From NCBI GenBank assembly GCA_000442015.1, contig KE560993.1, forward strand, positions 1-58,164: 58,164 bases of DNA, written 5' to 3'. Source of the stretch: Rozella allomycis CSF55. Lineage: Eukaryota. Under the pieces are notes generated by a model. The model saw only the letters and a list, made by a program, of their open reading frames with translations. It was not told the origin of the DNA and did not search any database. The translations under genes and the position numbers were made by a program. Each line of letters begins with the position of its first letter. Position 1 is the first letter of the stretch. Below, one piece after another: positions 9,549-32,100 of the stretch.

Positions 9549-12500
9549 ATGCAGGCACTACAAATCCTCCAATCGGATTTGCTAGCCCTATCAAATGAAT
9601 CTCGGAAAAAGAACATTGAAATAAAACAGGTACTTTAAATCTGCATGCTGAACTAGGCGATAGAAAAGCTGCTGGTGCACCTGAAATCGGACGATCCGCA
9701 ATCAGGTAACAAACGCAGTCTATCTAAACAGACCTGTACGATGGATTTTTCAAGTGTTTGGAGAGCAAGAACGGCAAGCTTGTGTCTATTGCGATAACGT
9801 GCCTGTACAAGATATTTTCGAATGACCTATTTCCGCGGATTTTGGTAGGCTTGTGTTGTTGGTTGGAGGTAGGTTGATTTTGAGCGGTTGTTTGAGCTGC
9901 TTGAGATGAATTTGGGTGGGACTAGTGGGGAGGTTCAGTTGAAGGTTTTGCAGATCTTGTCGTCGATTGTAGCGGCGTGTGAGATTACGAGTGAGGAGAT
10001 GTTTGATTCTATGAGGCTTGTGATGGTGCTGCATGAGCAGAAGAATGCTGTGGTGAGCAATACGGCCAAGGCGTCGTTGAACCAGATGGTTATATCGTCG
10101 TTTATGCGGTATAAGAAGGATGGGGTTAATCGGGAGTTTGTGTTGATGTTTTACCAGGTAGAGATATGATTATGGGGTGAAAGGATTTGTGTGGGATGCA
10201 GGGGGATAAGGAGGCCAAGTATTTGAAGAATGTGAATATACCGAAAGAGCTGGGGTATGAGTTGATAGAGTCGATATTTTTGAATTTTAATGAATTGTTT
10301 GAGCAGGTAGAAATGTTTGTGGATGATGATAGAATGAGGAGATGGTTGAGTGTACGAGGAGCAAGTTGTGCCCATTGTTGGTTAAGGGGTTGAATGATAA
10401 GCAAGAATTTGGGATATTTTTGAGGATTATTAGATTGATAAAATTGTTTATTTTGTATTTTTCGAAACTGTTGGAGACTGAGAGTGAAATGTTTTTGAAT
10501 TTGTTGTTAAAAGCGAGTGGGAATGCAACGCAGCCGATGATGCAAATTTTAGCGATTGAAGCTTTGAGGGATATTTTCAAGTCTGTTTCATTGTAAGAAG
10601 GAGGAGAATAAATAATTGTAGAATGTTGTTCAAGTTGTTTGATTCAAAGAAAGAAAAGGTGCAAGTGTATTCGATATTTATGAAGAATGTGATAAAGAGT
10701 GAGAATGAGAGTGTTACATTGACATTTGAGAATAGATCTATTAATTTGTAAATAGATTTGGAATGGTTTATTCTAGTATAGATTTACTTGACAAGACAGA
10801 AGAGCCGATTGTGGGAGAAAAGGAGATAATATTTGCTTCTATTCAAGCAGTGATGGGGTTTGTTGATGTATATTATCAAGAAATAAAAACAGAGGAGGAA
10901 ATGAAGAGGGATGAATTGATAAAGATTTGTGGATTTAAATTGAAAAATAAAAGAGAAGAAATTTTGGAATTTTCAGAAAAGAAGAAATTAATTTCCAAAG
11001 TGGCTGAAGATTTAATTTTATTTTTAGAAAAGATTTGTAAAAATGAAATGGAATTGGGATTGTATAAAGATTTATTAGATTGTATTTATAAATTATTTTG
11101 TTTATTGATTTTCTATAAAGAAGAAGAATTTGGCATGAAAATATTAAACTTTTTGATTCCAACGATTGTAATACCTAATGAAGAATATAAAGTATTGGAT
11201 TGTTTGAGTTTGAAAAGTTTGTTGAATGTTAGATTGATTGTTTATATTGGATATACCCTTGCAGATAGATTAGAGGATGAGTTTGAAGTAATTTTTAGAG
11301 TTTTGTTTAAGATTGAAATATTATTTAATTCTAAAAATTGTAGAAAACAAACAAATGAAATTTTGAATGAAAATAGTTTTATTGAAGAAATTTCAAATCT
11401 AATTTTAGAATCATTTTCTGTAAATTTCGTTAAAATATTTTCAATTTTTACAAATTTTATTAAAAATGTTTTATTTTCAGAGAATGAATTTTCAGTTGTA
11501 AGAAATAATCAAAAGCGAGAAAATGTGACATTGTTGGAATGGTTGAAGATAATTTCATTAAAATTTTCATTTAAATTTTTGGATGTTAAATATGAACAAT
11601 CATGGAAAGATTTAATAAATTTGTTGAGAGAATTAGTTGAACATTTTGATTTGAATGTGAGAGAACAAAGTTATTTAATATTTCATGAATTGATATTTGA
11701 TATTATTGAGCAGATTAATATAGAAGGTGAGACTGTAGCACAAGAGAGTATTTTGATTGCAATGGATAAATTTAGTGATGTTGAATTGTTTGATGTTAGT
11801 AGACTAGTTGTTGATTCTTATAATAAACTACTTCAAACGTCTGGTCAATTTCTGTCTGTTGGATGGGATTATGTTTTATCTATTCTCTACAAACTATCTG
11901 ATGGTTCAAAAAGAGTTGTTAAATCTAATAAACAAAGTATAATAAAAACATCATTCCCCTGTCTTCAATTGATATGTACAGATTACTTGTCAAATCTGAG
12001 TAATGAAAGTCTTTCTAAATGTATTGAAATAATAGAAAGATTTTGTTCTAGTAATGATGATTTGAATATTAGTTTAACTTCAATTGGTTTACTTTGGAAT
12101 GTTTCTGATTGTTTAAAAGAAAAACCTTCAACTGAAATTTGGAAGAAATTAATTTTAAAAGTTTCAAATCTTTGTTTAGATTTAAGACCAGAAGTCAGAA
12201 ACAGCGCAATTCAAACTCTTTTAAGATCAATTTCATTTTCTTCTTCTCTTTTAACATCTGAATTATGGAATTTTGTTTTTCAAGATATTTTGATTTCAAC
12301 TTTAAATAAAATTCTAGTTTTAAAAAATGAAAATCCAATTCAAGATGAAAATTCAGAAATTAAATTTCATCATTCTAGATCTACTTTTGAAAAACAATTA
12401 GATGAAACAAAAAGTATTTTTCTACAGGGGTTGGGTAAATCTATTTCTGAAAATTTAATTCATTTAAATGATAAACAATTTGATTCTTTTTGGATTTCTT

Positions 12501-14064
12501 TTTTTAATATTTGGAAACATTGTTGCAAATCTGAAAATTCAGAAGTTGCCATTGCTTCATTTAAATCTGTTAAATTTATTATTTCAGTTAAAGAAAATTA
12601 TGATTTCATGCAGCCTCATTGGATTTCTTTTTATGAATGTTGGTTGGACATTTTATCGCACATTGCTAATACCCCCACCTACTCTCAAGATGTTGCTCTA
12701 CACGCTACAAGTCTTCTAGCTGACATTGCAAACAAATCTTCATCTTTTACATCAAATCAACTCGAATCTATTTTCAATCTAATCTACAAAATTCTATTGT
12801 TTCCTTTCGCTAATGAAATGGTCCTGGATGTAGAAATTCTATCTCCTCTCCAATCAACCCTAGTAGATCAATTGGAGAAATTAGAATCAAAATTCACTAC
12901 AATCATCACATCTTTTTATGTAAAATTGGGAGAATTAACATTTCTAAATTTAAACAAGGAACGTGGGAAATCTTCATTCATTTCTCTTTCTAGAAGAATG
13001 TTTACTAAATGTTTAACCCTGGTTTCTGAAAAATCAGATATCATTCATGATCAAATTCCATCAATTGTTCAGGTAATTTATTTCACTNTTTAATATTCTT
13101 TTTTAAAAGATGTATGAAATTGCTATCAAGTTGCATCATCAGTGTCCTACTGGGGCTGGGAAGACTCCTTTTTGGAAACATGCCATTGAATGCATTCAAA
13201 GCATTTTCAAGTCTTTATCAAATCCAAATGACAAAGGTTTATCTAATGAGAAAGTTTCATCTAATGATAAAGGGTTACCAAATGCAAATGACAACTTTGC
13301 TTGGCTGGCCATTGGAAAATGCATCAAATCAATCTATGAATCTCAATCTTCATTCAAAGAAAATACCTCCATCGACGACATTGAAAAAGACGAAGATTTC
13401 CTAGTTGATTTCACTGCAAATGTCATCAACACTATTCTTTCAATCAACCTACCAAAAGACTCTTTAGAACTAATAATCCAAGGCATTTACAAGGGTTCTC
13501 TCTTGTACAATGATCTATTCGTCATCAATCCAGCCTCCAATCAGCTAATCGGTCCAAAGCAGCCAGACTCTGTCTTGCCATGCGCCTGTCTGCGTGAAAA
13601 ATTAGCGTCTGTTTGTCTAGCAAATCTATTCACTCTCTGCTGCACCAAAACCTCTTTAACAAACCAAATCACCATCCCATTCCTCTTAAAACGATCAGAA
13701 TTCGTCTTAAAGTCCTTCATTGAACGGAAATCAGTTCTCAACCGGCATCCATTCGAAAGGTTTCCAAATAATTTCTTTTTTAGTAGGATCAGTCATGACG
13801 AGTTTTTATTTATTTTGAATGGACTGGCCAGGCTGGATTTGGAAGTGGGAATCATGCAGCCTGTGTCGCAAGGTAAGGTTGGTGGTTGATATTGATTTAG
13901 ATCCGGTGAAATTGAAGTTGCTGTCTGGAAGCAAGGCACATTTGTTTTATTTATACCCGCTGCTGTGCCAGTGTCTGAGATGCGATGATCATGCTATTAC
14001 CGAGGCGGTGCAAAAGTGTCTCGTTTTGTTGGGAAATGAAATGGGATTGGAAGATGCCATTTAG
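9549..14064 (+). CDS. MON2: Mon2 (Arf-GEF-like endosome/Golgi trafficking protein)
   Basis: LQSDLLALSNESRKK start, EVQLKVLQ, SFPCLQLICTDYL, LNISLTSIGLLWNVSD, RPEVRNSAIQTL, HHSRSTFEKQ, HLFYLYP. Confidence 0.93.
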
Positions 14065-14216
14065 AGATTTAAAGATTTATATCAAACTAAATAAATAAAT
14101 TATTTTGCTTTTATTTTTTAATTTTACTAGTTAATCAGCGGAGGTTCTTTGCAGTTTTCTACTCTTTTTGTTTTCTACTCTTCTTGTTTTTAAAGAGCGA
14201 AAATTCCTAGTTTGAA

Positions 14217-16366
14217 ATGGACGAAATTCCTGTCAAGGCAGTGCCCACTATTGACTTGTCAATCCAAGAGCCTGCTCTTTCCAGTCCCCTATCTTCAAAA
14301 ATATCCAGACTGGACGTGTCGAAAGATTCGCCAGCCGCTGTATTGTCCGCTGGAATGGCGCAAATCGATGTCAAAGCAAAGAAACTAGTATACTCTGAAA
14401 AGAAACTAAAACTGGATATTCTGCCGTTTACTATTGCACGTAATATTTCACAAAATTTGTGTTTAGAATTGTGCTCGTTTCATTCGTGGTTGCAGGAACA
14501 CTTGGCACGGGATGGAGGAAGTGCTTTTTCGGGGTTTAGTGGGGAGCATGAAGCGCTGCTGATTTGCTTGTTTCAGGAAAGGTATGTTGTTGGTTTTGAT
14601 GTGAAAGTGAATTGGAGATGACAAAGTTGTGTTTGAAGATTTATGATAGTTTGTTTCCTAATACGCCTGAAGAAAGTAATCATGTTTGTGGGTTTAGAGT
14701 ACTAGAAAAGATGGAATATGTGTCGGTTATTCAGAAAACTATAAAGAGTCTCGGTGAAAGGGTTAATTATGGAGTACAGGAAAGTGGTTTTCCGCCGGTA
14801 TGACTTTATTTGTTCTTTAATGTAGTCGTTTAATATTTGGAGATGGGAAGCTAAAGGTTTAGATAAATTACCTCAGGATATGAGGGAAATGTTGATTGCT
14901 CGAAGGGAGTCTAGGAAGCAAGTAAGCTCTAATCTATGAATTGATAGACTCGTGAAGAAATATCAAGCTTGCTCGATAAATTGGATCCAGAAACTAAATC
15001 CTCTCTAAAAACATCAAAGTCATTGAAAAGAAAGCTGATTGACGATGAAGAAAAGCAAAGAGTATCATTTATACAATATTTCTTAATAGGTTTCTGAAGA
15101 AAAGAAGAAGCAAAAAGAAATGGAAAGAAAATTAGAAAAAGAAAAGAAAAAGTTGGAAAAGGAACAAGAGAAAATAGAAAAGAAGCAAAAAGAATTGGAG
15201 AAAAAGTTGGAAAAAGATAAAAAGCAAGGAAATATTTTAAATTTCTTTAAGAAAACTACCCCGCCTCCAAAAGAGTCTAAAGATGAGTCGATTGTTCTGG
15301 ATTCCTTTGATGAACTGTTTAGACCATTTCATTTAAAGCCTAACGCTGTTTTAGCACCGTGTAATCATTTTAAAACGATGGCCGCTCCACAGGGAGAAAT
15401 ACTTGATGATATAAAGTCTAGAGGACCTCTTTTAGCGCATAAAAGCTCAAACAGAGTTAAATTGACAAAAGTGAACGGTTTCACTGAACCATTTTACGTT
15501 GTTATGAAATTGCTAAAATTCGATGAGGATATTCGCCCTGCGTATTTTGGTAAATTCATAATTTTTTGTGGATAGGATCCTTTAGGAAAGAATTAAAAGG
15601 AGTTGGTTTTAGAAGGCCATTCGTTAAAGATACAAATGTCTTTGATTATGAAGTCGACAGTGGTGATGAATGGGAAGATGAAGGGGATGGCGAATCGTTG
15701 ACATCGTCTGAAGGAGAAGAACATGATCTTTCAGATGCTGAGGTAGATAGCGAGGCGGTAACTGTTAAATAGAGATTTCATTTAGGAAGACTGGTTGGTT
15801 CCAACAGGGTATCTATCAGAGGATGAAGGAATGGAGGGCAATGAAGCGGCTGAAACAAAGAAAATTACGAAAAAATTAGAAAAGTCTTCTAAAAAGGTAA
15901 ACAGGAATTTCACATCTGAATAGTTAAAACTTTCACAATTGGTTCCAACTGTCATTGGTCCGATATTGAAAACAGAAGACCAGAATGAAACTTTGAAATC
16001 TTTTCAAGCAATATTTTTGGATCAGCTGGAGCCTTTCGATCCTTTCGAGGTCCCTGTTGTAGAAGAGAAAGAGAATAAACCACCTGTTGATCCCTTCACA
16101 CCCGATTTATTAACCGTATTAGCCAAATTAGTAGATGACAATCCAACTTCGATTAACATATTAGTGGATGATTTCTTTACGCAGTAAATTCTAATACATA
16201 TCTTATAGTTAGAACTAAAGCATCAATTTCAAGGAAGAAATTGGAAAATAAGATTAATGAAATCGGGTTTAAAAAGAAACTTGACGGAGAAGTAAGCTGG
16301 TTTTTGTTTCAGTTATAGGCATTATGTTGGCACTTGAGAGAAGAATTCGAATGTTTGCTAGATTAA
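14217..16366 (+). CDS. RLF2: Chromatin assembly factor-1 large subunit (Cac1/Rlf2/CHAF1A), about 11 introns
   Basis: KER coiled coil, QGNILNFFKK PIP-like box, KLLKFDEDIRPAYFG, DYEVDSGDEWEDE, WLVPTGYLSEDE. Confidence 0.9.
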
Positions 16367-16464
16367 AATAATTATTAAAACAATTTTTATTACTTAAACT
16401 TTTTAAACAATTTCTTGCTCATTGTATACTCACAGTCTTAAACCCTTGCAATCAATTAATTGTT

Positions 16465-17061
16465 ATGTTGTTTCGAGCAAATTTGAATCGCTCCAAGGGC
16501 ATCTTGACTCAATCAATTTTTAGCAGAAATGTGTTTGTTAAACCCGAGAATCGCTTCCTTGAATTGGAAAAGATTATCGATGAGCATTTCTTCATGACTC
16601 CATCCCAAAAGCAATTGGATAGATTGTACGCTGATAAAATCATTCCTAAAACTATGTATGATGTATTGACTGAAGAACTAAATGAAAAACAGCATTATCG
16701 CCGTAAATCTTAACTTGAATTTTTCATAAAGGCAGTCAATTGAACTGGGAACGCTTTGCATACTACTTTTGCATTCCCATGGCATTTGTTGGTGGTCTTT
16801 CGGCTTATTACGAGATGAGTCACAGAATTGAACATAGCAAAGAACATTATCGCAACTATAAGCCTTACCATTTCTTGCGTAATCGCGTCAAGGTAAGACA
16901 TATGACTTTTTTGCCTGTAGCCATTTATGTTTGGTGATGGAGACACAACCTTGTTCTGCAACAAGGAATTTGAATACATTCCTGGCTATGTTCCAGAATG
17001 GTACCAAAAGGAGCTTGAAGCTGCTGAAAGAGGTGAAGCCCCAGAAAAGGAGCATCATTAA
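16465..17061 (+). CDS. COX13: Cytochrome c oxidase subunit 6A (Cox13) with an extended N-terminus
   Basis: Spliced frame WERFAYYFCIP-TM...YHFLRNRVK|PFMFGDGDTTLFCN matches the COX6A YxxLRxRxKPFPWGDGxxTLF motif. Confidence 0.85.
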
Positions 17062-17087
17062 TAAAATGAAGTTGATGCAATTTAAAT

Positions 17088-18216
17088 TTATTCAGTGTTT
17101 GATGGAAACAGACAATACTGATTTGACAATTGGAGGTCATTCTTTTCAACGTTGAGCGTGTAAACATACATGTATCCATCCATCGATGCCACATATAAAT
17201 GTGAAGAATCGCTAATTACTCGTTTTAAAATTTGTTACGGCGAAAACGCGCATATACTATACGCTTTCTTTGGGAGTTTGATGCTAACAAAATCTCTGAT
17301 CGGCTCCAAGGCGTCTACAACTACACTGGGAATATAGAGACCCAGATTTCTTTCTTCAAAGCGAATTTAGTTTACCTTTTTTCCATCTTGTATAGATGAA
17401 TAGTTGTCTCACTAGTCGCAGCCAAAATGTTCGATTGTTGATTGAATGTCAGATATTGTATGTTCGTTGGAACTGCCCCTCGTCTAAATTGAAATAGTTT
17501 TTCTCCGCCAGGTAAGGAAAATACTCTGATAATTGTTCCCTACATATAATTGATCATCTTATCACACCTTTTCACTGCTTGTGGCGACAAAAGTTCCATC
17601 GATATTGAAAGATATATTGCAAATTCTATTTTTATGGGCATTTATTACATTCATGGATACAAGGTTGCCGGCTTCATAGATAATAACATCACCACTTGTT
17701 GAGTTGCAAGGGAAGGCAAGAAAACACGGAGAATCACAAGGAGATAGTGAAATGATACCTTTTCTTCCAATTTTAACATCGAGGTTCTGAAGAAGGGTCA
17801 TGCTATTTAGATCGTAAATTTGTATGCTGTCATCAAATGATAAAACCAATCTTTTTCTATTAAGCTTGACGGATAATATTGCCCTTGGAAATTGAAGCTC
17901 ACAAATCACGGTTTTTCTCTATAATGAATATTAAGGTATCTTACTTTGGTGTTGTACAAGACAAGCTTTCTTGGACTTTGATTAATTGATTCGCCTGAAC
18001 CAACAAGGGCTAAAAGGCTGGAGCTAAAAAGCATTTCGACTATGCCGTAATGTCCTTCTTGTATAACAGTATCTACATTGTTGTACCGTGTTGACAAATT
18101 AAACAGAATGGAATTAAGGAATATACATAACATGAATGGTTCGCTGAAAAACAAAGGCAAGTGTAATCTTGATTAAATGTTAACCATTGGATTTGATTTT
18201 CGTCCACAATTCTCAT
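17088..18216 (-). CDS. ATG18: PROPPIN WD40 autophagy protein Atg18/WIPI
   Basis: [51 protein letters not shown] lipid-binding motif. Confidence 0.92.
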
Positions 18217-18323
18217 ATGCGCAGCCTCTGAAATTTCTTAAATATTAAAGCCAAGTTCACAGGTGTTTGGTGGTTGGAATGAAAACTTATAATATAACTG
18301 CATACCGTATATGTATCGTTTAT

Positions 18324-19727
18324 TTATGCTGAATTGAATAAATTATTGAAACTTGACTTTAATGCTCTTGGTAAAGTCATAGATGCTCGGACATTTTGAA
18401 TATCTTGTACAATTTTCTCTATTTTATTACATGGCTCTTCTTCTTGTAGTTTTTTGAGAATCTTAGCAGTATAATCTACAGCAAAGTAGTCACTACTTGC
18501 TTGAACAACTTTCAAAAAACCTGGTAGGCCAACAATAACTTGCCAGTATTTGTATTTTTTATTGTTGGGAATTATTTTAACAATCGCTACTATGTTTTTC
18601 AAAGATATCTTGTCTAATGAATATTTCATCAGTATTTCGAAGATCTTCTCATTATCTTGCATTGAAACAATCTTAACTGATTCTCGTAGGAATTTTAAAT
18701 ATGTAGACAATGATGAGTTGGAAAAAGGATCTTTTCTGGAAAGAAAATGGTCAACAATTTTTGGGCGCTCAAAATACACGGCAAGCTTAAGACTATCATA
18801 TTCAAGATCAAACAATCTTTCCGTCCAAAATAAACTTTGGCAGTACACTTTTGGAGAATCATTAAAGAATGCCACTATCGGTATGAGCTTTCGGACTACA
18901 AATTGTTTCATTGGCGCTTCTTCGCTTAATGCTGCCCAGTCTTCTTCAATGGCAGTTAAAATCTTAGTTAATAAAGTTTCAACAGTATAATTTTGATTCA
19001 AGTATGGATTATTCCTAACAAAAGCCAATATTTTCTTTGATTCTTCAGGATCACTTGTTAGCCTCAAAACGAGTGTAATAACCTCTAAATAGAAAGATGA
19101 ATCATGAATATATAATTCTCTATACTTTATGTACACTTTAACCGAGTCATGTTTTATAATTTCACCCAGAACCGCTAACGGCCATCGATTCTTTTCAACG
19201 ACCAATGAAAATATCATCCCCAAATCATTCTTAATAATAAAGGGCACATGATCAATATTTACGAAGGATTTGGCCATATTCAACAAAATTTTGAACTCGG
19301 ATTCTACGGAGTTGCCTGAATGCACTTTAACAATGTGTTTTTCGTTGAATTGTTTTAAAAAATTTGTATGTTCAAATATTTCATTGAAGCATTCTTGGTA
19401 GCTTATATATAATTTACATTGAGAAAGAAAGTAATGCAAAGTTGTATAATTGGGTTTTAATGAAGTTAAATACTCAATCCTAGCATTTTTGTATTGAAAT
19501 ATTGACAATTGTAAATCATTCTGCGCCAGTTTAGATGATTCTATTTTCTCGTAGTCCAGTGTCGATCCCATTTCTCCACTTACACTTACGCCCGAGCAAG
19601 TGGAATGACCTAGATCTTTGCTTTCGCAAAAATGAGAACCTTCGTTGTTGCCTCTGGGCTTCAAATTTGTTGCATAGACTTGATGAAGGAAAATATAGAG
19701 TGAAAGTAACAGTCGCGTCAGATCCAT
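18324..19727 (-). CDS. Intronless secreted protein with degenerate ankyrin-like helices, function unknown
   Basis: Long ORF; likely start MDLTRLLLSLYIFLHQVYA (signal peptide); LKLAVYFERPKIVDHFLS resembles an ankyrin repeat. Confidence 0.65.
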   Translation of the reverse strand: MDLTRLLLSLYIFLHQVYATNLKPRGNNEGSHFCESKDLGHSTCSGVSVSGEMGSTLDYEKIESSKLAQNDLQLSIFQYKNARIEYLTSLKPNYTTLHYFLSQCKLYISYQECFNEIFEHTNFLKQFNEKHIVKVHSGNSVESEFKILLNMAKSFVNIDHVPFIIKNDLGMIFSLVVEKNRWPLAVLGEIIKHDSVKVYIKYRELYIHDSSFYLEVITLVLRLTSDPEESKKILAFVRNNPYLNQNYTVETLLTKILTAIEEDWAALSEEAPMKQFVVRKLIPIVAFFNDSPKVYCQSLFWTERLFDLEYDSLKLAVYFERPKIVDHFLSRKDPFSNSSLSTYLKFLRESVKIVSMQDNEKIFEILMKYSLDKISLKNIVAIVKIIPNNKKYKYWQVIVGLPGFLKVVQASSDYFAVDYTAKILKKLQEEEPCNKIEKIVQDIQNVRASMTLPRALKSSFNNLFNSA

Positions 19728-20316
19728 GTGTGGCGCAGTTGAAATTGCAACGTGGTGGAAAAAAATCATGCAAAACTATTCTCATAGCAATTTTACTGCT
19801 GCGAAAATCATTATGGTATGTCAAAAATTTATAAATGGCGATAATTATAATTTATTGACATTGCCCTTTGTAGTCTGTGAATGCAAGTCTCCGCAGAATC
19901 ATTAATGTGTTATGTGATACTTAGTTTTAGTCTTAACTATTCTTTTCGACATTACGAACAATTGAATAAGGAAATTCCTCCTTAATTCCATACAGAATGG
20001 GAAAAGTAAACAAGCTACATAAATTAATTATCAACGACATCTTTCGTCATAATTTGCCAAAAAATATTCGTAACCATTAATTAGTTCCTTCAGTTGACCT
20101 ATTTGTAAGGCAGTTAAGACGAAATAGAAGTTATAGAACAGATTTCGCCATTTCTTTAGGTCCTCCTAAACATCATATTCGCAACAATGAACGTGGGAAT
20201 ATACAATAATAAAAGAAAGATAGGTAAGACGCTGCGTAATTCTTGGGCTCTCTAGTCCTTGACCAGGTAGGAATTAAAAAACAAATTTGTGATTTTTCTG
20301 GAACCTGGCCGGGAGA

Positions 20317-21484
20317 ATGGAGATCCATTTCGACACTCAAGATATCCCCCACCATCATTTTTTAAGGTATTTTTTGAAAGCCAAAAGAATTGTGGTAATA
20401 ACTGGCGCCGGGATATCTGTCTCTAGTGGAATACCTGTAAGCAATATTGGTGTATTTTTCTAGGATTTTAGATCATCAGGAGGTCTTTACGATGCGGCCA
20501 AAAGTACTAAGAAATCCCAAGGAAAATCTTTATTTGATGCCCAGGTATTTTTATGTGCGATTTTTAATAGGTTTTTAGAGATACTGAAAAGATGTCAGAA
20601 TTTTTTCAGTTTATGGCAAAACTAAAAAAGAAGTGTGATGAAGCAAAACCATCAAAGACACATAACTTCCTAAATTTGTTGGCTGAGAATAAAAAGATGA
20701 TAAGATTGTACACTCAAAATATAGATTGCTTAGAAGACCGCCTTAGTTTTGAAAATGTAAAGAAAGACATTGTTATAAAACTGCATGGGTCTTTAGACCA
20801 AGTTCGTTGCATGACATGTTCAAACACATTTGAAATTGAAGATTCTCATGTCGAAAGTTTTGAAGAAGGGTTTGCACCAGAATGTATTTCATGTGTTGAA
20901 TATCAAAAGAAAAGAATAGAAAGAGGAAGAAGAGCTCCGCCTGTAGGATTTTTGAGGCCCAACGTTGTCTTGTACAATGAAAACCATCCTTCTGGAGATA
21001 TAATAAGTTCAATGGTAGATAAAGACATAAAGTAATCATTAAAAGAGTCATTTTTAGACGAAAACCTGATTTGCTTATCGTGATGGGAACTTCTTTGAAG
21101 GTTCATGGATTAAGGCAACTTGTAAAGCAATTCGCTAAGACTGTGCATTCAATTGAAGAAGGAAGAGTATTTTTTATAAACAAGACGCCTTTGTCTTCTG
21201 AATGGATTGATATTTTTGATTTTCAGTTGCTTGGTTTATGCGATGTTGTTACCACCTATATTCAAACTGCCCTAGAAAAGCACTGGAAAATATCGAGAAA
21301 ATCAATTGTTCTCTCCCCTGTTTCTCAAAAAACAATTAAAGATTATTTCAAGACTGTCAAATCTACATCTTTGTCGAATTCACCAATCTCTGTGAGAATT
21401 GCAGAAAAGGAAAACATTATTGAAAACTCTAATTTTGATGATAAATTAAAAAGAGCAACTAGAAAAAAATCTCCAAATAAATAG
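20317..21484 (+). CDS. Sirtuin NAD-dependent deacetylase, Hst3/Hst4 class
   Basis: VITGAGISVSSGIP|DFRS, RLYTQNIDCLE, LHGSL, CxxC..CxxC, LRPNVVLYNE, VMGTSLKVHG. Confidence 0.9.
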
Positions 21485-21507
21485 ATGCTGTTAATCTTTC
21501 ATTTTAT

Positions 21508-23203
21508 TTAAGACTCTTGCACAGTCCATGGCAATTTTAGAATCTCCTTTGCTGTTGGGCGTGAGTTTGGTTCCCTTTTTTGCTAAAGGAGAAATTTAAT
21601 ACTTTTCAAAACATAAATTCATTATTTGCTTTAAGCTATCTGAAGCATTGTCTGGTATATCAGGGTGAACATGTTTCCCTAGCTTGAACATCACAGCCTC
21701 TTGTATACAGCCTGTCCATGGATGGTTAGCAGTAAGCATTTCTATCAATACACAACCAAAACTCCAAATGTCAGTCTTTGTGGTTATTGATCCTCTTAGA
21801 ACTTCCGGGGCCATCCAAAAAACAGTCCCTTGGATGGAATGTCTGGCTTTGGAGCTTGCACCCAATTGAAGACTTAGCCCAAAGTCGGATATTTTAACTT
21901 GGCCGTACTCATTCAATAGAAAATTGCCGCCTTTAATGTTTGAAGTTAAACTTCACAATAATACAGTAATTCCAATAAAACAAAAAGGATATCTCTATGA
22001 ATAATATTTTGTTCGTGTAGATAAGATAGACCTGAGAGCATTTGTCTTGCGAAATTCTTCATTAATAATTCTTCAAAGGGCCCGCAAGTATTCAACAAAC
22101 TAGCGATTGAACCACCGGGAACATATTCTAACAGAATATTCAGTTTAGTTTCATCTCTTGTGGCCCCTATACTATTAAAGATTATAAACTACCTAAATAT
22201 CTGACAATATTGTCATGTTTCAATGTTTTCAAAACCTCGATTTCTTTCTCCAATGACTCAACCTAAAATTTTAGAGACATTTATAAAGTACTGTCTTAGT
22301 CTTTTGAATACAAGAGTCATTGGATAAATCTACCGTCTTAACTGCCATGAGGGTTCCATTTTCTGCATTAAGACCCAAGTATACGTCTCCAAACGATCCT
22401 TTTCCGATTTGTTTGCCCATTATCCATTTTATTGGTTTACCTACGTTCTTTAGTTTGTCTGAATCAATGACGACGCCTGGGAAATAACTGTCTAGCTGGG
22501 AATTTATTAACTTTGATGGCGGCCGATTAACTGGTCTTAATTTTGAATCGATCATAAAATCATCATCTGCTTTGTTATATTTGGAAGCGGTTAAGTAAAT
22601 ATCCAACTTTATAGAGTCATTAGAAAAAATTAACATGTGTTTCCAATCTCTTTCTCTTAAGTTATGTATCACTACGCTAAGAAACTAATTGATGTTACTG
22701 CCATCCTTTCTCATTATAAAGAATTGAAATTCTTTTGGGAAACTCTGTTTCTCAAGCACTTTGTTTAACGTTTCGTGCAGGTCAGAGTAATGGTTTCGTT
22801 CATACTCAAGTTCAAAGGAACTCGAAAGGATTGGCTGCTTGGAATGCCTATAAAAATTGACATTTATCAACAATAATTATACCAAATAAGAATTACTTTT
22901 TCTTTTTCTAAAGGGTTTCGAGCTTACTTGGCCGTGAGTGTTCCAACTTTTGTATTTTTGATTTCACAATATTATCAGCCATTAAGTGTTTTATCTCACC
23001 CAAAATTCTAGCGCAATGACCAATTTTCGAGACACCTATTTCTTTCAAATAATCGTAATCTAGGTAAGGCAATACATCTCCATCAATCATGTGATCTACG
23101 ACAAAAATGCTTACTTAGGCATACTTTTAAAGCTGTTAATGTGCATTTCCATACCAATTGATGAAATCCAATCAGCGACTTGAGAGCAAGTCCAATTTCG
23201 CAT
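21508..23203 (-). CDS. STE11: Ste11/Byr2-like MAPKKK with an N-terminal SAM domain
   Basis: SAM ([10 protein letters not shown]...IDGDVL...[11 protein letters not shown]); kinase [43 protein letters not shown]. Confidence 0.88.
21940..21992 (-). other. Probable U12-type (minor) intron, 53 nt, AT-AA termini
   Basis: CAT AGA G|ATATCCTTTTT...GTTTAACTTCAA|AC ATT AAA restores HRDIK; no single GT-AG intron does. Confidence 0.75.
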
Positions 23204-23228
23204 AACAAATCCAAGCCACGTTTTCGCA

Positions 23229-24013
23229 ATGAGTAAAGATGATGAATACGATTTTCTGTTCAAAGGTAGTACTACACGTGAAATAAAAACTAGTGGTTCT
23301 GATTGGAGACTCTGGAGTAGGTAAAAGTAACCTCCTATCGCGTTTCACCAAAAATGAATTTAATCTAGAATCCAAGTCTACTATCGGCGTAGAATTTGCT
23401 ACTAGAAGTATTCAAATTGATGGAAAAACTATAAAAACTCAGATTTGGGATACTGGTAATAAGGTTATGTGAAGGTAATGTAGCTGGCCAGGAACGTTTT
23501 CGAGCTATTACCAGTGCGTAAATTTAATGTATTACTTTTGAATATTAGGTATTACCGTGGTGCAGTCGGTGCATTTTTAGTTTATGATATTGCCAAACAA
23601 GTGACATTTGAAAGTATTAGCCGATGGCTTAAAGAACTCCGTGATCATGCAGACAGCAATATTGTCATAATGATGGTTGGTAACAAGAGTGACTTGAGAC
23701 ATTTACGTGCTGTTTCTACAGATGAAGCCAAAAGCTTTGCGGGTAAGGCTAATTCTGCACATTTATGAAAGCTGAAAATGGACTTTTGTTTATCGAAACC
23801 TCTGCCTTAGATGCCAGTAATGTAGATTTGGCTTTTCAACAAATTCTTTCTGGTAAGTGAATTAAACTGTAGAGAAAAGAAATATTGAAGATATATTTGA
23901 AGAAATCTTTAGAAAATGGAGGTGCTAGTTCTGCAGCTCCAAGCTCTGGGCAAAAAATATCAATCTCTGTTGTCCCTCAAAATCAAGAAAAAACTGGTGG
24001 AAAATGCTGCTAA
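23229..24013 (+). CDS. RAB11: Rab11/Ypt31 GTPase, 5 introns
   Basis: [67 protein letters not shown]-terminal CC. Confidence 0.96.
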
Positions 24014-24032
24014 TAAAAAGATTATTACTTTA

Positions 24033-25619
24033 TTATGTCGTTAATTTATTTAATAAAATGCTTAATGAGTCTTCAATTGATGAAACCTCTAAACATTTTG
24101 CCTTCACAGTGTTTACAATTTCCTTTTGACATTCATGCAATATAAATTACTCGGAAAAGTCTATCATTGTTTTCAAAGTACTCTGTGAACTCTTGAATGT
24201 AATTTAATACATTATGTCTATATGTAACTTCGTTAGGCCAAAAAGCTTTAAGCCAAAGTTGAAACCAGGGTATAACATATTTCCTAATACAAATTGGAAT
24301 CAAAGTTTGTTCGTAATCATCGCTAGAGGATGAACAAAATTGAAATAAATGAGAATACCATGCCATTGAATCAATTGGTTTATAGGTCTAGTTAATTAAG
24401 GCAGGAAAATTATACCATTAGAGGATTCAACGACAATAGTTCGTATTTGATGTAAAACTCCATTAGACCTGGAATATTATGAGAAAAATAAGCCGATTCG
24501 TATTTTTTGGGGTAATTAGTCTTGAATTCTTTCAGCAATTTAAGAAAACCAGTTGGAGATGAAAATTGTTCATCAACATTTTTAACGATTGAAGAGATAA
24601 ATTCAGGCTGAATTTTCTATTTGAATGATAAACTAAAATTACCAGAGTTGAATTTGTTTCTTCAATGCTGCTGGGGGAAATATTGTTCATTAAACTATTC
24701 AATGACGAAAATGCTTTTTCTATTTTAAAGCTCTATAATCTCTTTAATAGAATCTAATCACCTTTTCTTCAAAAAAGTCACACAAAGTGATAAAATAATT
24801 CCGCAGTTTTTGCATGAATTCGTATTCTTCAGCTTCTTGTGTAACTTGTTTTTGAAGATTTAAAGAATAGTCATTAATGAATTTAATCGAATCTTCCAAG
24901 TTGTTCAACTTGATCTTCTCTTCCTTTAGCTCTCGCCTGAAAGATTGAATATTCAATTCAGTTTCTTTTATGAAATCATCAAAATTGGCAATTTCATCAA
25001 ATTGCAACGAGATTTCTTCTCTTTTGCTCTTTATTAATTCTTCTGCATTGATTTTAGTGTTATCAACGCCTTTTCTGATTTGACTTAATTCCCATTCCTC
25101 TCGTGTCTCATCCTCGCTCATCCTTTCAATTGCAAATAATACCGTTACTCTTCATCATAAAATTCATTCTCTTCATATGCATTTAATGTGTTATCTTGCA
25201 CTCCATACTGAACATCTCCATTCAGAGAAATAAATTCTTCGTTCAAAGATCTCTTAAATTCCCGATTTTTCTTTGCCATTAAAATATCTTGGGAGTCTGG
25301 TATCGATGATTTGGTTTTCATGGTGGCATTCTGTTTTCTTTGAAGCAATATTTCCTTATAATATTCGCTTGTTTTATCGTCTTTGCTGTCATCTCTGTCA
25401 GTCTCTGGGAGGTTAACTATTTCATTGCGCTTCATTTTGAAAGAGGTCGTCGGTATCTCGTCCTGCTTCACATCAAAGAGAATTTCTTACTTGAACATCA
25501 AAGCTCACCTTCATCTTTTGTTGTCCAGTACCTGCTCTAGAATTTACAACAACTTCTTCTTCATCATCTGACACATTCTTTTTCCTTATATTTCCTCTCT
25601 TTGACCGTTTTGTGAACAT
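24033..25619 (-). CDS. GCFC2/PAXBP1/Ntr2-family spliceosome-disassembly factor
   Basis: MFTKRSKRGNIRKK start, IPDSQDILMAKKNRE, EFISL, EWELSQIRKG, FMQKLRNYFITLCDFFEEK, YESAY...P, MAWY. Confidence 0.8.
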
Positions 25620-25632
25620 AGAAATATCTCAA

Positions 25633-27087
25633 ATGTTTAATCTCTCATTTCGATGCAAAAAGGTCCAGTTTTTAAAATCTCCTGGCGATTTTTATAATTT
25701 TTTAATAGTATTGCTTTCTATTTTATATCAGGAAGGATTCCATTCGTAATTCAAAGGATAGAATACATCTTGCAAGTTTATACCTGGGTGATGGCAACAT
25801 GGAAGAGAAACTAGTAATCAAAATAATCCGCTGAGAAAGGTGTTTGAATTGCACAAAAAGTTAGAGGAGGGTGTCCCTGTATCAGTCATATTGGATGGAT
25901 TAAGAGGTACTCGCAGATCGATCAATCGAAGGAGTTCGTATGACATGTTGCTCCCATTAAGCCAAAAGTTTGATCATTTCAAAGCATCTTTCCTTAAATG
26001 TCCTAAAATGGATGCTAGAGGTGCTAGATGGATCCCTGAAAGATTCAATGAAGTGTTTGGCATAATGCATATGAAGGCATGCATTTTTGATGACACTCTA
26101 GTTCTTACGGGGTACAATTTATAGCTTTTAAATACTAGAGCAAATTTAAGTTCTATATATTTCCAGAACAGAGTTGACAGATACGCAGTTTTTCAAAACT
26201 CCACGCCCCTTGCCGATTTCTATGCTGAATTACTAGATGAAATGTCCGAAATTGGAAACTGTGTAAGCTCTTCAGGAAGCATGACTCCAACATTATGGAA
26301 ATCAAATCATTCTCACAACTACAGATTGGCCGTTAAGAATAAGATTTCAGAATTTATCAACAAGGAACGAACTGATTTAGGAACTGGAGAACTACTTGTG
26401 AGTCCTACAATCCAGCTTCCCCCTTTTGGAATCNAATCCAGCTGCCCCCTTTTGGAATCGATCAATACCATCAAACAATTTTGCAATGTCTTGCCAATAT
26501 AAACGAAAACCAAAAAGTGTTACTCTCTGCGGGTTATTTTAATTTAATTGAAGAATATACAAAAGCTCTATTGAATTCGGGAGCAAGAGTAGATTTGCTA
26601 GTTGCGTCACCATCAGTAATTTACCGGGGTTGTTCATACAGGCAAATGGATTTTACAATGCATCTGGGTTATCCAAGCACATTCCGTCAGTGTATAGTTT
26701 GCTCGAAAGAAAATTTATGAAGACGATACGCAGGGCTAAATGTGATGATAGGATTAGATTGTATGAGTTTGACAAGCAAGGGTATTCATTTCATGCGAAA
26801 GGATTGTGGATTTTTGATAAGGATGGAAAGCCAGTTTTGTCGACTATTGGATCACCAAATCTTGGTACGATTTATTAATGATGAATATAGGGTATCGGTC
26901 TGCATATAGAGATATGGAGAGCCAGGTATTTTTAAAAAGTGATAATGATGAAATTAACGCGGCGATTGTTGAGGATGCAAGGAGAATCCTGGAAGACTCT
27001 TATGTATTAACAGAAGAAGATTTAAAGAGTCGGCATATTCCAGCAATTTTGAAGTGTGTAACACCTTTAATAAAAACAATGCTTTAA
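25633..27087 (+). CDS. PGS1: Phosphatidylglycerophosphate synthase (PLD superfamily)
   Basis: SPGDFY, RIHLASLYLG, DGLRGTR, MHMKACIFDD..TGANLS, ANGFY, FHAKGLW, GSPNLGYRSAYRDME. An N-linked duplication near 26434 breaks the frame. Confidence 0.92.
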
Positions 27088-27099
27088 GTAAATTTATTT

Positions 27100-29103
27100 T
27101 TAATCAAAATGTACAAAAACAAACCCTTGTCCCCCAACAATGCTAATGTCATTGATGCACGAAAGTGATGATAGTCTAATTGGCAAACCTTTGGCTATAT
27201 TTTTAGGCGAAACAGTAATCTTTGAATCTTTAAATGCAAAATTCATTTTAAGAAAAGTCTAAATTGTATAAAATAAATTGATTACGTCCTTTGCGCGTTT
27301 CAACGAAGTCTTGTGCATGAATTCACCAGAGTCAGTCACATATTTAGTACTTTTAGATAACAGAAAAGCATCCTGAATTTCAAAGAGTGATTCTAGTTAC
27401 CAAAATGAAAGAATCTTTAGAAACAATGGCATTGTAACTCCTGTCAAAAGCAGCTTCGATGACTCTAACAACTTTATCTTCAGAGACCAGAAATGGTTTC
27501 ATTAAAGATTCAGAGAATCTCAACTTGTGAGAAATAACTGTTTTAAAAAGCTTGAAAAGTTTTACCGCCAGATCTAAAGATAGTTGTTGGTTGCAAGCCA
27601 AGATTAAAATTGTATTCATAAATGTTCCCCGAGTGATTTGCTACAAACAAGGAATAATTGTTCGACGTGGATTCAATACTCTTGATTACGCCTGTCCATT
27701 TTACTGAAGTAATCAAACTATTAGAGACTGGGAAACAATGCATTGGTTCATTTGATTCATTCAGCATGTCATAAATTAGTACAAATCCTTTTAATATTTA
27801 AAGTGTGAATGTACCTTCATTTGTTCCAACAGCCACATAGCTATTGCAAATATTGTTTAAAGAAAGATTGGGAATCCAATCAAAGGAATGAAATTGAAAT
27901 TTATGATTAATTTTTAAATGTTGTCTTGGCCACATTAAATACTTTCTTTCATCGTTTAAATTTAAGATTGCCAGTCGAATTTGATTTCCGAAAATTCCAA
28001 TTAATCCAATTTTGTCTTTTCCAATTCTCTTTAACTGAAGATCTTTCAATGATTCATGTTCATAGCAAATTAGTTTAAACAATTCAATCTTTTTCTTTTT
28101 TATTGAATAGATTAAAATGCATTCTTTGGAAACGTTCAGAATTGAAATTGTTGTGTGAACAGTTTTAGGATCTTTGTAGCCGCCAACAGCAAACAAAACT
28201 TGATCATCTCTTAAACTCAAACAATTCCCTTTACCTAATTTTAAAACATCTGTTGAAATAATTGCCCCTCCAGTGTTAATCAACGTAAAGTTTTTAAAAT
28301 CCTGCAACGATAAATGAGGAATTTCATAATCTTTATTCACATGAAAATTATTTGTCAATGGCTGAAGAGCGAACTCTAAAACTTTATCAAATGGAATTTC
28401 ATCAAAATCTGAATAATTCAAGTTTTCATGTTCTAAATATCCCAAATCTACAATTTCATAATCTTTCAGTGGTTTTCTATCAGATCTCTTTTTCTTCTTT
28501 TGAGTTTCATTTGATTCGTCAATCTCAAATTCCATTTCACACAAATCATTTCTAACACACGCACTCCAAAGTAGATGAAATGAATCAATATCTATCGCAT
28601 AAACAAAATCTCTTAAACTAACAACTTTGGGTATTTCCCTCACAACATCTTAATGTTATTTCAAACATTCACTCCTTACCTTCAGCGATAACCTTTCCTG
28701 CTGCCATTGTTATCTTTTTCAATGAATGTTGGTAGTTGATAACGTGATATTTTATTCCTGATATAGTCGTAAACTCTTCAGAACAGCCAGGAAAGGGACA
28801 CAAATACTTGTCCGTTTCCTTTACTATTTGCAATATCCCCTTTGACATTACAGGAGACAAACATTCCATCAATGCAGGATTATCTTTTAATGATCTAACA
28901 CTCATCAACTCTGGTGTGGGATTATCAACACTCACACACTTNTTACCATTAAAGCTGTTAAATTCTTCATCACAACAATGATACTTTTCATAATCATAAA
29001 AAGAAGCATGATCGTAAACTTGAAAATGTTTCGCCAAATACTTTTGCTGCAAAAACCTGAACGGACATCCCACAAAAGGACAGTCCAGAGTTTCAACCTC
29101 CAT
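27100..29103 (-). CDS. C2H2 zinc-finger plus WD40-like protein, possibly TFIIIC subunit Tfc6/GTF3C2-like
   Basis: CPFVGC...H and CPFPGC...H fingers; LINTGGAIIS, FAVGGY, FDW, VAVGTNEG beta-propeller-like motifs. Confidence 0.55.
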
Positions 29104-29143
29104 ATCAAAGATTCAAACCTGGAATTTCAGAAAATTTCCTCGA

Positions 29144-32100
29144 ATGGGCTGGCTAAAGTTTAACCTGCCTCCACCGAACCAAGATGCATTTCAAACACCG
29201 CAAAACGCTAGAAAGACAATAAAGGCCACTTCGGGAGCAATTTTATTATCGGTAGATTCGAATATTGGAAGCTTGAACACAGCCCTGAAATCGGTTTTGC
29301 AAAAAGATGAGGCAACGCCGGAGAAGACTCATAATCCATTTTTTGCTACACCGTCGCAGCAAAATACACAGCTTTTGGTAAAGGATACGCCGCAGGGGTC
29401 GTTGGAATTGATTCGGCAAGTGAAAGGAGACTGTGAAACTAAAGGAAAAGAAGAGTTGAATAAAATTGAAACAATGAAAGAAATTGATTTGAATAAAGAT
29501 GATATTGAAGTTGATAATAAAGATTCAAAAGTAGAAAGTAAAGGAAACGAAGAAGAATTGGATGAAGCTGAAAAAGATTTGAATGAAATTCACGCCACCT
29601 TAGAATTGATAACAACACCAGTTATTCTTAAATATGACACAATTGAAGCAACACCTCTGATTTCTGCTGAAACTCCAAAAGCAATCATGGATGAAGATGT
29701 TATAAAAAGCCCATCAGAAAGAAAACTAAAACAAAAAGAAGATGAAAAATTGAAAGCTGATCAAATTCCTTCTACTATTCAAGAGAATGTAAACGCAGAT
29801 GACGAATGCACGAAAGATGAAATTTCAATCACAGAAAATTTGGTTGTTGAAAATGCCAAGATTGAAAATTTGGCGTCTCAAGGTACTTTTAATTGTTTAC
29901 TTGGAAGTTAGTTTTGTTAATGACGCCAGATGCATGCAAAGTTGCCACACAATTAACAGATAAACCAAGTGAAGAAAGTGTCTCAGAAACTAAAACAACT
30001 GAAACTATTTCAAATATAGAAAAAGATCAAAAACATTTAATAGAGAATGAAAATATTCCAGTTGCCGTCAGTGGATCATTTTATGAGCCATTAATCCAAT
30101 CACAAATGACGCCTGACGTTATTGAAAAAAGTCAACCTTCAAGCGCATTGAAGATTATAAACACAGCGAAAACACCATCCAAAGTAACCGTCATGGGTAA
30201 TTCATTAATTTTTCTATTAAATAGTGAAAGAAACGCCTTTTAAAAAGCAAACAATAATTGTTCCATCTTCAAATCCTTATTCAACAAAGAGTATGAAATA
30301 TTATGTCTTGTGATAGAGCCCATTGAAATAATGTCCCAGGAAGCTACCCAGCCAATTGCCCGCCATGACCAACCGAACATTTCTGGAATCTTTAAATCTT
30401 ATCCAAACATTTTAGATATTCTGGTTGAAAAAAGAAAATTATCTGAAACTGGGAAAGAACCAAAGAAGCCTAAATGGGATGACCACAATGAGAGTGAGAT
30501 TGAGGAAAGGCCAATTGTGATAGAGGAAAAGGAAAATACAAAGCCACCGTCAATTGTATTAAATCAAGAATTCAATAGCAGCTATGAAAATCAAACTCCT
30601 AGACTAGGTGAAATACCCGAGTTAACTTGGAAACCTTCAGAGTTTACTGAGACAGAGAAACTTTCAGGGTTAACTGAGACGGAGAAACCTTCAGCGTTGA
30701 CGGAAGGCGGCAATCAAATTGAGAAATTTCCCATTGTTGATAAAAAGAAGTTTTTAGATAAATTTGTTCAATCTTGTGTCTATCCATCATCATCATTAAA
30801 AATAAATTCTCTAATTTGGGCTAAATGGAGGGATGGAATATATTATCCAGCAAAGATTCTCAAACGTGCTGCTCCGAGATCCAAGACTATTGAAGTTATT
30901 TTCAGTGATGGAACTAAATACAAGGCGCCTAAAGGTGCTTGCCATATCTTTCAGCTTTCTGTTAATACTCTAGTTAAAATATCATCGTCCAAGGAAGGGC
31001 ATAATGGCATTGTAGTAGAGTTTGAGAGTTTGTCTAATATAAAGATTGATGTGGACAATGTGATGCAAATATTTACGATTCAGGATATTGCAATGGATGA
31101 AGAAATGTTCCAAAAGGCAAACATGCCTAAAACCCCTAAAAGGCCACACAGTAGACTAAAACAGTTGAGAGGTGTTGAGACGCTCTCTTCTAGTGTTCGA
31201 TCACCGTTTTCTTCAAAGTTTAATGTAGGCGATGTTGTGTGGGCGCCTTGGTCTGACAATTATTTCTATTCAGCAACAGTCACAAATGTGAAACCTCTTG
31301 AATTAGTTTACAATGATGGAGATTCGTGTAATGTTCGTGCAGAGAATCAAATATTTTTAGCAACTTTAAATGAAGGCGACACTGTTCTAGTCAAGAAGAA
31401 TGATTGTTTTGAAAAGGCGAAAATTAGACAACGAATAAATTCAATGATTTTCTTACTTTCAATTAATGGGACAATTGTTAAAGAGTCTCTAGTCGGTATG
31501 GCCATGACCAAAGACTTGATTGACAAATGCTACACCAGCAAACGGCAAAGCAAAGCAGAAATTATAGATTCGCCTGAAAAAATGGCTACTGACACTCACA
31601 GGATGAGGCAACTCAAAGGAAGAATCTTGTTTCCCTCAGATTCATCGTTTGACATATTCAAAGGTCTGTTTTTCTACATTACGCTTTCATCAAAAGAAAG
31701 TAAATTCAATTCACATTTAATAAAGATATTTATTCTGTCAACAAGCAAGAATTGTGTAAAAACATTAAAAAGTACAGCGGCTCAATTTTGGAGAATTTTG
31801 ATAACGTTCCATTTGCATCAAAGAGTCACATTCTTTTATCCAACATGCCTTGCAGAACTATAAAATATTTAAAAGCTTTGGCTTTGAATCTGCAAATTAT
31901 TTCGGTAGATTGGATCCAAAAATCAATAGAAAGAGTAATACATGTTCTTGTTATCAACAGAGGACAGTTTTGCCGTTTGATCAGTTCTATCTTCCTACTG
32001 GATTTTCAAAGCAAGAAAATAACTATGTTAACCCTTTAACAATGCCAAGCCCTGTGTTTGACTCTTTAAATATGTCCGTTTATGGCGAATCTGGTTTCCA

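Follow-up and report, generated by a model that had tools for sequence, protein, structure and literature searches.

An apparent interruption within the catalytic-loop HRD motif of a protein kinase gene of Rozella allomycis CSF55 raises the question of what is removed from this transcript, and by which spliceosome. The window analysed here is a stretch of 58,164 nt (contig KE560993.1, positions 1 to 58,164), for which a preliminary description had proposed a minor-spliceosome-type intron with AT-AA ends. We find that this is still the best reading: the interruption is a 53-nt AT...AA intron on the minus strand (21992..21940), which is genuine by every available sequence test and, by the features that can be tested, of the U12 type. 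Its excision by the minor spliceosome, giving an intact STE11-type kinase, is highly probable.

The kinase gene and its public model

The gene is assigned to the STE11/Byr2 type because a SAM domain lies upstream of the kinase part and the nearest matches of the latter are fungal MAPKKK/Byr2 proteins (Table 1); for a Ras-binding domain between SAM and kinase, two exon pieces were searched and gave no Pfam match. Directly upstream, on the same strand (~23250-23500, minus), lies a piece of what we take, from its G1 and switch motifs, to be a Rab11-like small GTPase. The public model (P0001; gene at 21511-23197, minus strand) is a 100% match, named a Rozella allomycis kinase by its source. It starts at 22420, the SAM region being absent from it, and reads HR-FC-GN, with the catalytic D and K missing; it is a false pseudokinase produced by mis-modelling.

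Table 1. Features of the STE11-type kinase gene and of the intron in its HRD motif (window coordinates)
Feature	Position	Strand	Remarks
SAM domain, two pieces	22983..23197	-	Pfam SAM_1 matches
Ordinary GT-AG intron, 29 nt	22263..22291	-	
Ordinary GT-AG intron, 26 nt	22167..22192	-	
Upstream kinase exon	21993..22166	-	ends ...IIHR+G
Predicted U12-type intron, AT...AA, phase 1	21940..21992	-	splits Asp codon of HRD (G/AC)
Invariant 13-nt donor ATATCCTTTTTGT	21980..21992	-	23 exact genomic matches
Nested 31-nt GT..AG of the preliminary description	21951..21981	-	present, judged incidental
G at -10 from branch A, start of GTG	21954..21956	-	presumed extended U12 pairing
Possible competing GT-AG intron, 26 nt	21931..21956	-	from GT/GC..NG enumeration; in frame, catalytic-loop Lys lost
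Branch site TTTAACT, predicted branch A 21946	21944..21950	-	6 nt from intron end; 19-branch-site alignment
AA acceptor	21940..21941	-	sole frame-compatible AA/AC end 3-14 nt past branch A
Downstream kinase exon	21603..21939	-	starts AC ATT AAA (D-I-K-G-G-N ... DFG ... APE)
Ordinary GT-AG intron, 28 nt	21575..21602	-	

Extent, frame and splice registers of the STE11 intron

Unspliced, the kinase frame leaves register after IIHRD, and HRDIKGGN is regained once 53 nt are taken out, just as the preliminary description had claimed. The junction is anchored by the Pfam profile, the upstream residue corresponding to Pkinase position 122 and the Ile to position 124, with one codon between them, and HRDIKG[GA]N is present in 68 of 76 homologues. 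Since the other introns in the kinase part measure 26, 28 and 29 nt, the intron is about double the usual length, again as first described.

Six registers (shift 0 to +5) encode the identical protein. Two had been counted earlier, and the shifted AT-AC register proposed there does restore the frame; the span then given (21938-21992) contains the intron but merges two models. Among the six, the U12 donor ATATCCTT opens only shift 0 (21992..21940). The donor ATATCCTTT is located at 21992 on the minus strand and TTTAAC at 21950-21945, both as originally reported, and the 3' end of the intron is TTTAACTTCAA, its terminal AA lying at 21941-21940. The earlier statement that an AC acceptor leads to a stop also holds: the consensus donor joined to the AC situated 2 nt downstream of the AA yields HRD followed by a stop codon. 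The cuts would thus be G/ATATCC... and ...TTCAA/AC, giving GAC ATT AAA (D-I-K). The Asp codon of the cDNA, proposed at the outset as the means of telling the models apart, would indeed tell the shifted AT-AC register apart; shifts 0 and +1, however, yield identical mRNA and the codon alone therefore cannot place the cut. Run X1, aligned on positions 12000-31900, contributed 46 short, mostly divergent pieces, with a depth of zero across 21960-23287.

A small class of introns in the Rozella genome

The donor ATATCCTTTTTGT has 23 exact sites in the genome, corresponding to 19 distinct introns, one duplicate and three chance matches. The 19 introns are 43-59 nt long, are in phase 1 in 14 cases, and end in AA (13) or AC (6); the AT-AA ends initially called unusual are indeed found at STE11, but AA is the majority end in this set. 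Genome matches to RTATCCTTTTTG number 35, versus 4 for the reversed control. The branch motif followed by AA or AC at 6-9 nt is present at 19/22 distinct exact-donor sites versus 6/70 one-mismatch sites, and only the latter figure is an independent rate because the motif was derived from the 19 introns themselves. The one-mismatch donors examined were 70 of 91; none was accepted as an intron, and all 6 positive sites sit inside open frames of at least 96 aa.

With the consensus donor, the chosen frame leads to an AA or AC end in 19/19 introns, against 11 of 38 wrong frames. In 8 introns (6 AA, 2 AC) the junction is fixed by homologues irrespective of the end bases, through Pfam profiles for STE11, TGDS, XPG and GBE1 (AA) and STX6 (AC), and through homologues for MTG1 and CHMP1 (AA) and PPCS (AC). 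The 11 introns without such a junction are less sure, their frames having been picked, with the sequence visible, by the length of the open frame, by a match on one side or by a familiar motif. Comparison with homologues did not set the register in UBE2O and did so from one side only in BUD20. Five introns (L014, L026, L053, L063, L073) lie in genes without a clear family, one LRR protein among them, where the ends follow from open frames.

Three exact-donor sites were dropped, two of them (L041, L065) for want of a branch site and with open or reverse frames, and the third (L070, initially read as AT-AC) for lying inside a long reverse-strand frame, which we take to resemble a PH domain. The duplicate (L069) was likewise removed from the intron count: the genome has two copies of a STX6/TLG1-like gene piece that includes the AT-AC intron (L068:1501 and L069; G000:C861:545001 and 550701), 5.7 kb apart and identical over at least 1.6 kb, as expected of either a tandem duplicate or an assembly repeat. 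The CHMP1 gene (L019:1445-1547, minus strand) opens with a 5-codon exon, followed by the AT-AA intron, a 7-codon exon and a short ordinary GT-AG intron.

No convincing GT-type minor intron was recognised among 6 GTATCCTTTTTG sites and 29 GTATCCT..branch..AG matches (17 in the control), and weaker or longer G-type introns may be present in Rozella. A pattern scan of metagenomes for relatives returned 62 stretches, none of them eukaryotic-intron-like on the frame screen; 9 of the 62 were read in three frames and set aside as prokaryote-like or non-coding, the HRD of one (L174) being a chance occurrence. From their shared architecture, the ~19 Rozella introns appear to be one small A-type minor class.

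Splice signals and their complementarity to snRNAs

The donor matches RTATCCTT, the 5' splice site of U12-type introns. The U12 consensus had been correctly recognised at STE11, but the conserved donor extends over 13 nt and not 9. Its positions +4 to +13 form predicted 10-bp duplexes with both U11 (through ACAAAAAGGG) and U6atac (through GCAGGAAGGA), at -10.3 and -11.7 kcal/mol, respectively. This complementarity accounts for the invariance of the GT at +12/+13; position +14 is free. The Rfam U11 match opens with AAAAAGGG, and the genome carries immediately before it the AC, 2 nt ahead of the match, which would take part in the pairing; we infer a U11 5' end that includes these two bases.

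The predicted branch sites are complementary to U12, strongly so across the 19-intron set; the STE11 site (-3.2 kcal/mol with the U12 box) is among the weakest. From the branch A to the intron end there are 6 nt in 11 introns, 7 in one, 8 in three and 9 in four; the distance near 11-13 nt that is typical of U12-type introns, without defining them, is seen in none of the 19. Counting from the fourth nucleotide beyond the branch A, the chosen end is the first AA or AC encountered in 16/19. Further upstream, position -10 relative to the branch A is a G in 12/19 introns (interior G amounts to 7.5%), and this G matches the CACU just beyond the U12 box. The mean U12 duplex reaches -8.1 kcal/mol, versus -5.8 +/- 0.4 kcal/mol with the upstream bases shuffled (0/300 shuffles).

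These signals suggest a scheme in which U11 first, and U6atac next, would occupy donor positions +4 to +13 through 10 bp, while U12 would sit on the branch site with a helix extended upstream. The 3' end would be chosen by the short fixed branch distance (6-9 nt) together with an invariant penultimate A, followed by A or C.

Minor-spliceosome machinery in the genome

The preliminary description had held that a lack of minor snRNAs would count against the intron, and this objection fails, since U11, U12 and U6atac were all found in the 11.86-Mb genome. The U11 gene scores 78.1 bits, above the Rfam cut-off; the candidates for U12 (36.4 bits) and U6atac (26.8 bits) fall under theirs, with the AGUAAGGA box of the former and the AAGGAGAGA box of the latter intact. 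The U6atac candidate carries GGC in place of the Rfam-consensus AGC triad, and the positions at which U12 and U6atac (loci L002:1501-1607 and L001:1501-1633) depart from consensus still pair mutually, in a predicted 8-bp duplex. U4atac gave no Rfam match in the genome, and two U6atac-complement patterns yielded a single candidate (L136), rejected as the antisense of the RPL15 start. A hybrid pairing of U4 with U6atac was also rejected, being no better than shuffles (47/300). The major U4 snRNA gene itself (L230:1501-1642, G000:C796; 71.9 bits, one N) shows an apparent short internal duplication, perhaps an assembly slip.

Among proteins, a CRIPT gene is present. No minor-specific gene emerged from profile searches for 25K, 48K, 35K, 20K, PDCD7, SCNM1, CENATAC and a second DIM1. 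These negatives are weak because each exon was scored separately once a permissive prefilter had been applied, a procedure that is insensitive to intron-split genes. Matches to zf-U11-48K (L166), Ubiquitin_4 (L167, ubiquilin-like) and U1snRNP70_N (U1-70K) belong to other genes, and the zf-U1 matches are presumably U1C-, WBP4- and ZMAT2-like genes, not minor-specific.

It is tempting to see in this inventory a stripped-down minor spliceosome, with AT-only introns, AA as main acceptor 6-9 nt from the branch point and a longer RNA pairing replacing lost protein factors, a picture that we offer tentatively, as less likely than not, and that is less probable than its parts at the intron level. The latter (AT-only introns, an AA majority, a long donor) are likely correct; the uncertain step is the compensation for lost factors by longer RNA pairing, through which the loss of U4atac would perhaps be offset as well.

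Intron positions shared with human genes

In the accessible part of the published human table (PMC8280824), the minor introns of MTG1 and STX6 (AT-AC) and of LSM12 (GT-AG) read as lying at the same codon and in the same phase as those of Rozella, so that a shared position was read in 3 of the 14 genes that were looked up, STE11 not being among the three. MTG1 is thus AT-AC in human and AT-AA in Rozella. Human minor introns of GBE1, ERCC5, CUL4A/B and CUL1 were rejected as counterparts, the exon flanks listed there being, on our reading, unlike those of Rozella. The exact 13-nt donor occurs twice in the portion of the table available, in the AT-AC introns of human GBE1 and SLC9A7, the GBE1 one being sited elsewhere than that of Rozella (PMC8280824).

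Alternative explanations

A cut displaced by 2 nt, removing an AT-AC intron at 21990-21938 (ATCCTT...AAC) by either spliceosome and leaving GAT ATT AAA, would give the identical protein while possessing canonical AT-AC ends. It does so at the price of a broken U12 donor register, and the same +2 shift applied to the 19 introns spreads their ends across seven dinucleotides, with AC in only 3; human MTG1, moreover, is cut at the unshifted position. We consider this cut very unlikely. No better placed is a product of the major spliceosome (the 26-nt GT-AG intron 21956-21931, tandem mini-introns or a microexon), which would leave the kinase inactive or the gene decaying. The 26-nt stretch is normal-sized, restores the frame and overlaps the STE11 branch site, and the public model likewise arrives at HR-FC-GN. 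None of the 8 frame-restoring GT/GC..NG solutions, however, keeps HRDxKxxN, although the DNA encodes an undamaged I-K-G-G-N, in agreement with 68/76 homologues, and the 13-nt donor common to 18 other introns is left unexplained. Such an outcome is very unlikely as the main one, and the 26-nt product may arise as a minor side product.

The nested 31-nt GT..AG that the preliminary description pointed out (21981-21951) does exist. It could be taken for one half of a twin intron, in which the major spliceosome removes GT(+12)..AG and a 22-27-nt AT-AA intron remains for the minor one; the invariance of the GT at +12/+13 and the enrichment of G ~10 nt upstream of the branch A both fit this idea. Yet an AG at 26-33 nt from that GT is found in only 4/19 introns, and position +14 is T in 10/19 and A in 5/19, while GTA opens each of the three ordinary STE11 introns. 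Both bases of the GT have counterparts in U11 and U6atac, and the upstream G has one in U12. The GT is part of the invariant donor, the internal GT-AG is not conserved, and a nested arrangement seems most improbable. A last possibility is that the bases around the acceptor are wrong, through faulty sequencing or assembly, or that the signals are relics no longer used in splicing. The locus is known from a single assembly; against this, 19 genes, scattered over many contigs and including several of essential type, show the same architecture, and the duplicate copies L068 and L069 are identical. The probability of such an artefact or relic is close to negligible. Excision of the unshifted AT-AA intron by the minor spliceosome remains the reading that we retain.

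Novelty and implications

Taken alone, the STE11 intron is a further case of the known rare AT-AA subtype. What appears new lies at the genome level: a set that is A-type only as far as searched and was missed throughout by annotation, with an AA majority, a very short predicted branch distance and a donor fixed over 13 nt, to which two snRNAs are complementary. A survey, in the part of it available, had credited Rozella allomycis with putative U11, U12 and U6atac, without a U4atac, and with a minor-intron count of 0 (PMC11347168); the zero score despite the three snRNAs arises because gene models step around AT-AA introns. Such bypassing damages core proteins, as with STE11 turned into a false pseudokinase, and the other genes with AT-AA or AT-AC introns are probably mis-modelled too. 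Further genomes credited with minor snRNAs but no introns may conceal similar ones.

With AA exceeding AC, the G-type seemingly gone and the branch distance halved, the Rozella system makes it possible to test directly how the minor spliceosome chooses a 3' end and how it pairs the terminal bases. Its ~19 targets and three matching snRNAs would allow a simple design of compensatory-mutation tests. This fungus-like parasite, a neighbour of Microsporidia, would further show minor splicing far along in its decay.

Comparison with other minor-splicing systems

Our literature search, for which most subscription papers were out of reach, found no paper on minor introns in Rozella; the comparisons below draw on the accessible parts of the sources cited, with further background in PMC8476143 and PMC5378181. 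AT-AA accounts there for 8 of 66 non-canonical cases (PMC1557818) and is the commonest combination among the ~4% of minor introns that are non-canonical (PMC10639083), GT-AG being the commoner minor subtype, with a best branch distance of 11-13 nt (PMC3584512). The A-type AT-AA introns of animals and plants resemble those of Rozella in their ATATCCTT donor, TCCTTAAC-like branch site, AT-AA ends and phase 1 bias, as well as in the three shared positions. Non-canonical ends amount to ~4% in animals and plants, whereas 13/19 Rozella introns are AT-AA; the G-type is the commoner one in the former (441 vs 179), whereas all 19 Rozella introns are A-type. Unlike those of animals and plants, as far as the sources extend, the Rozella donor is invariant over 13 nt and the predicted branch A lies 6-9 nt from the end.

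Early-diverging fungi are reported to retain minor splicing, with 205 minor introns in Rhizophagus, 237 in Basidiobolus, 129 in Neocallimastix and ~4 in Rhizopus (PMC10639083, PMC11347168, PMC2846911). Like Rozella, these lineages outside Dikarya keep U11, U12 and U6atac, U4atac often going undetected in the accounts available; the signals of Rhizophagus reportedly follow the animal and plant consensus, unlike those of Rozella. In Physarum polycephalum, for which co-change of snRNA and intron and many non-canonical ends have been described (bioRxiv 2020.10.12.336362), the available portion of the report shows several likenesses to Rozella: numerous non-canonical ends (AT-AA making up 27% of those of Physarum), a short branch distance (9-12 nt in Physarum), and an intron signal and snRNA altered together. 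Physarum, however, has thousands of minor introns, mostly with canonical ends and with a changed branch motif, against the ~19 of Rozella, in which no G-type introns were found, AA is the main end and the predicted pairing is lengthened rather than altered.
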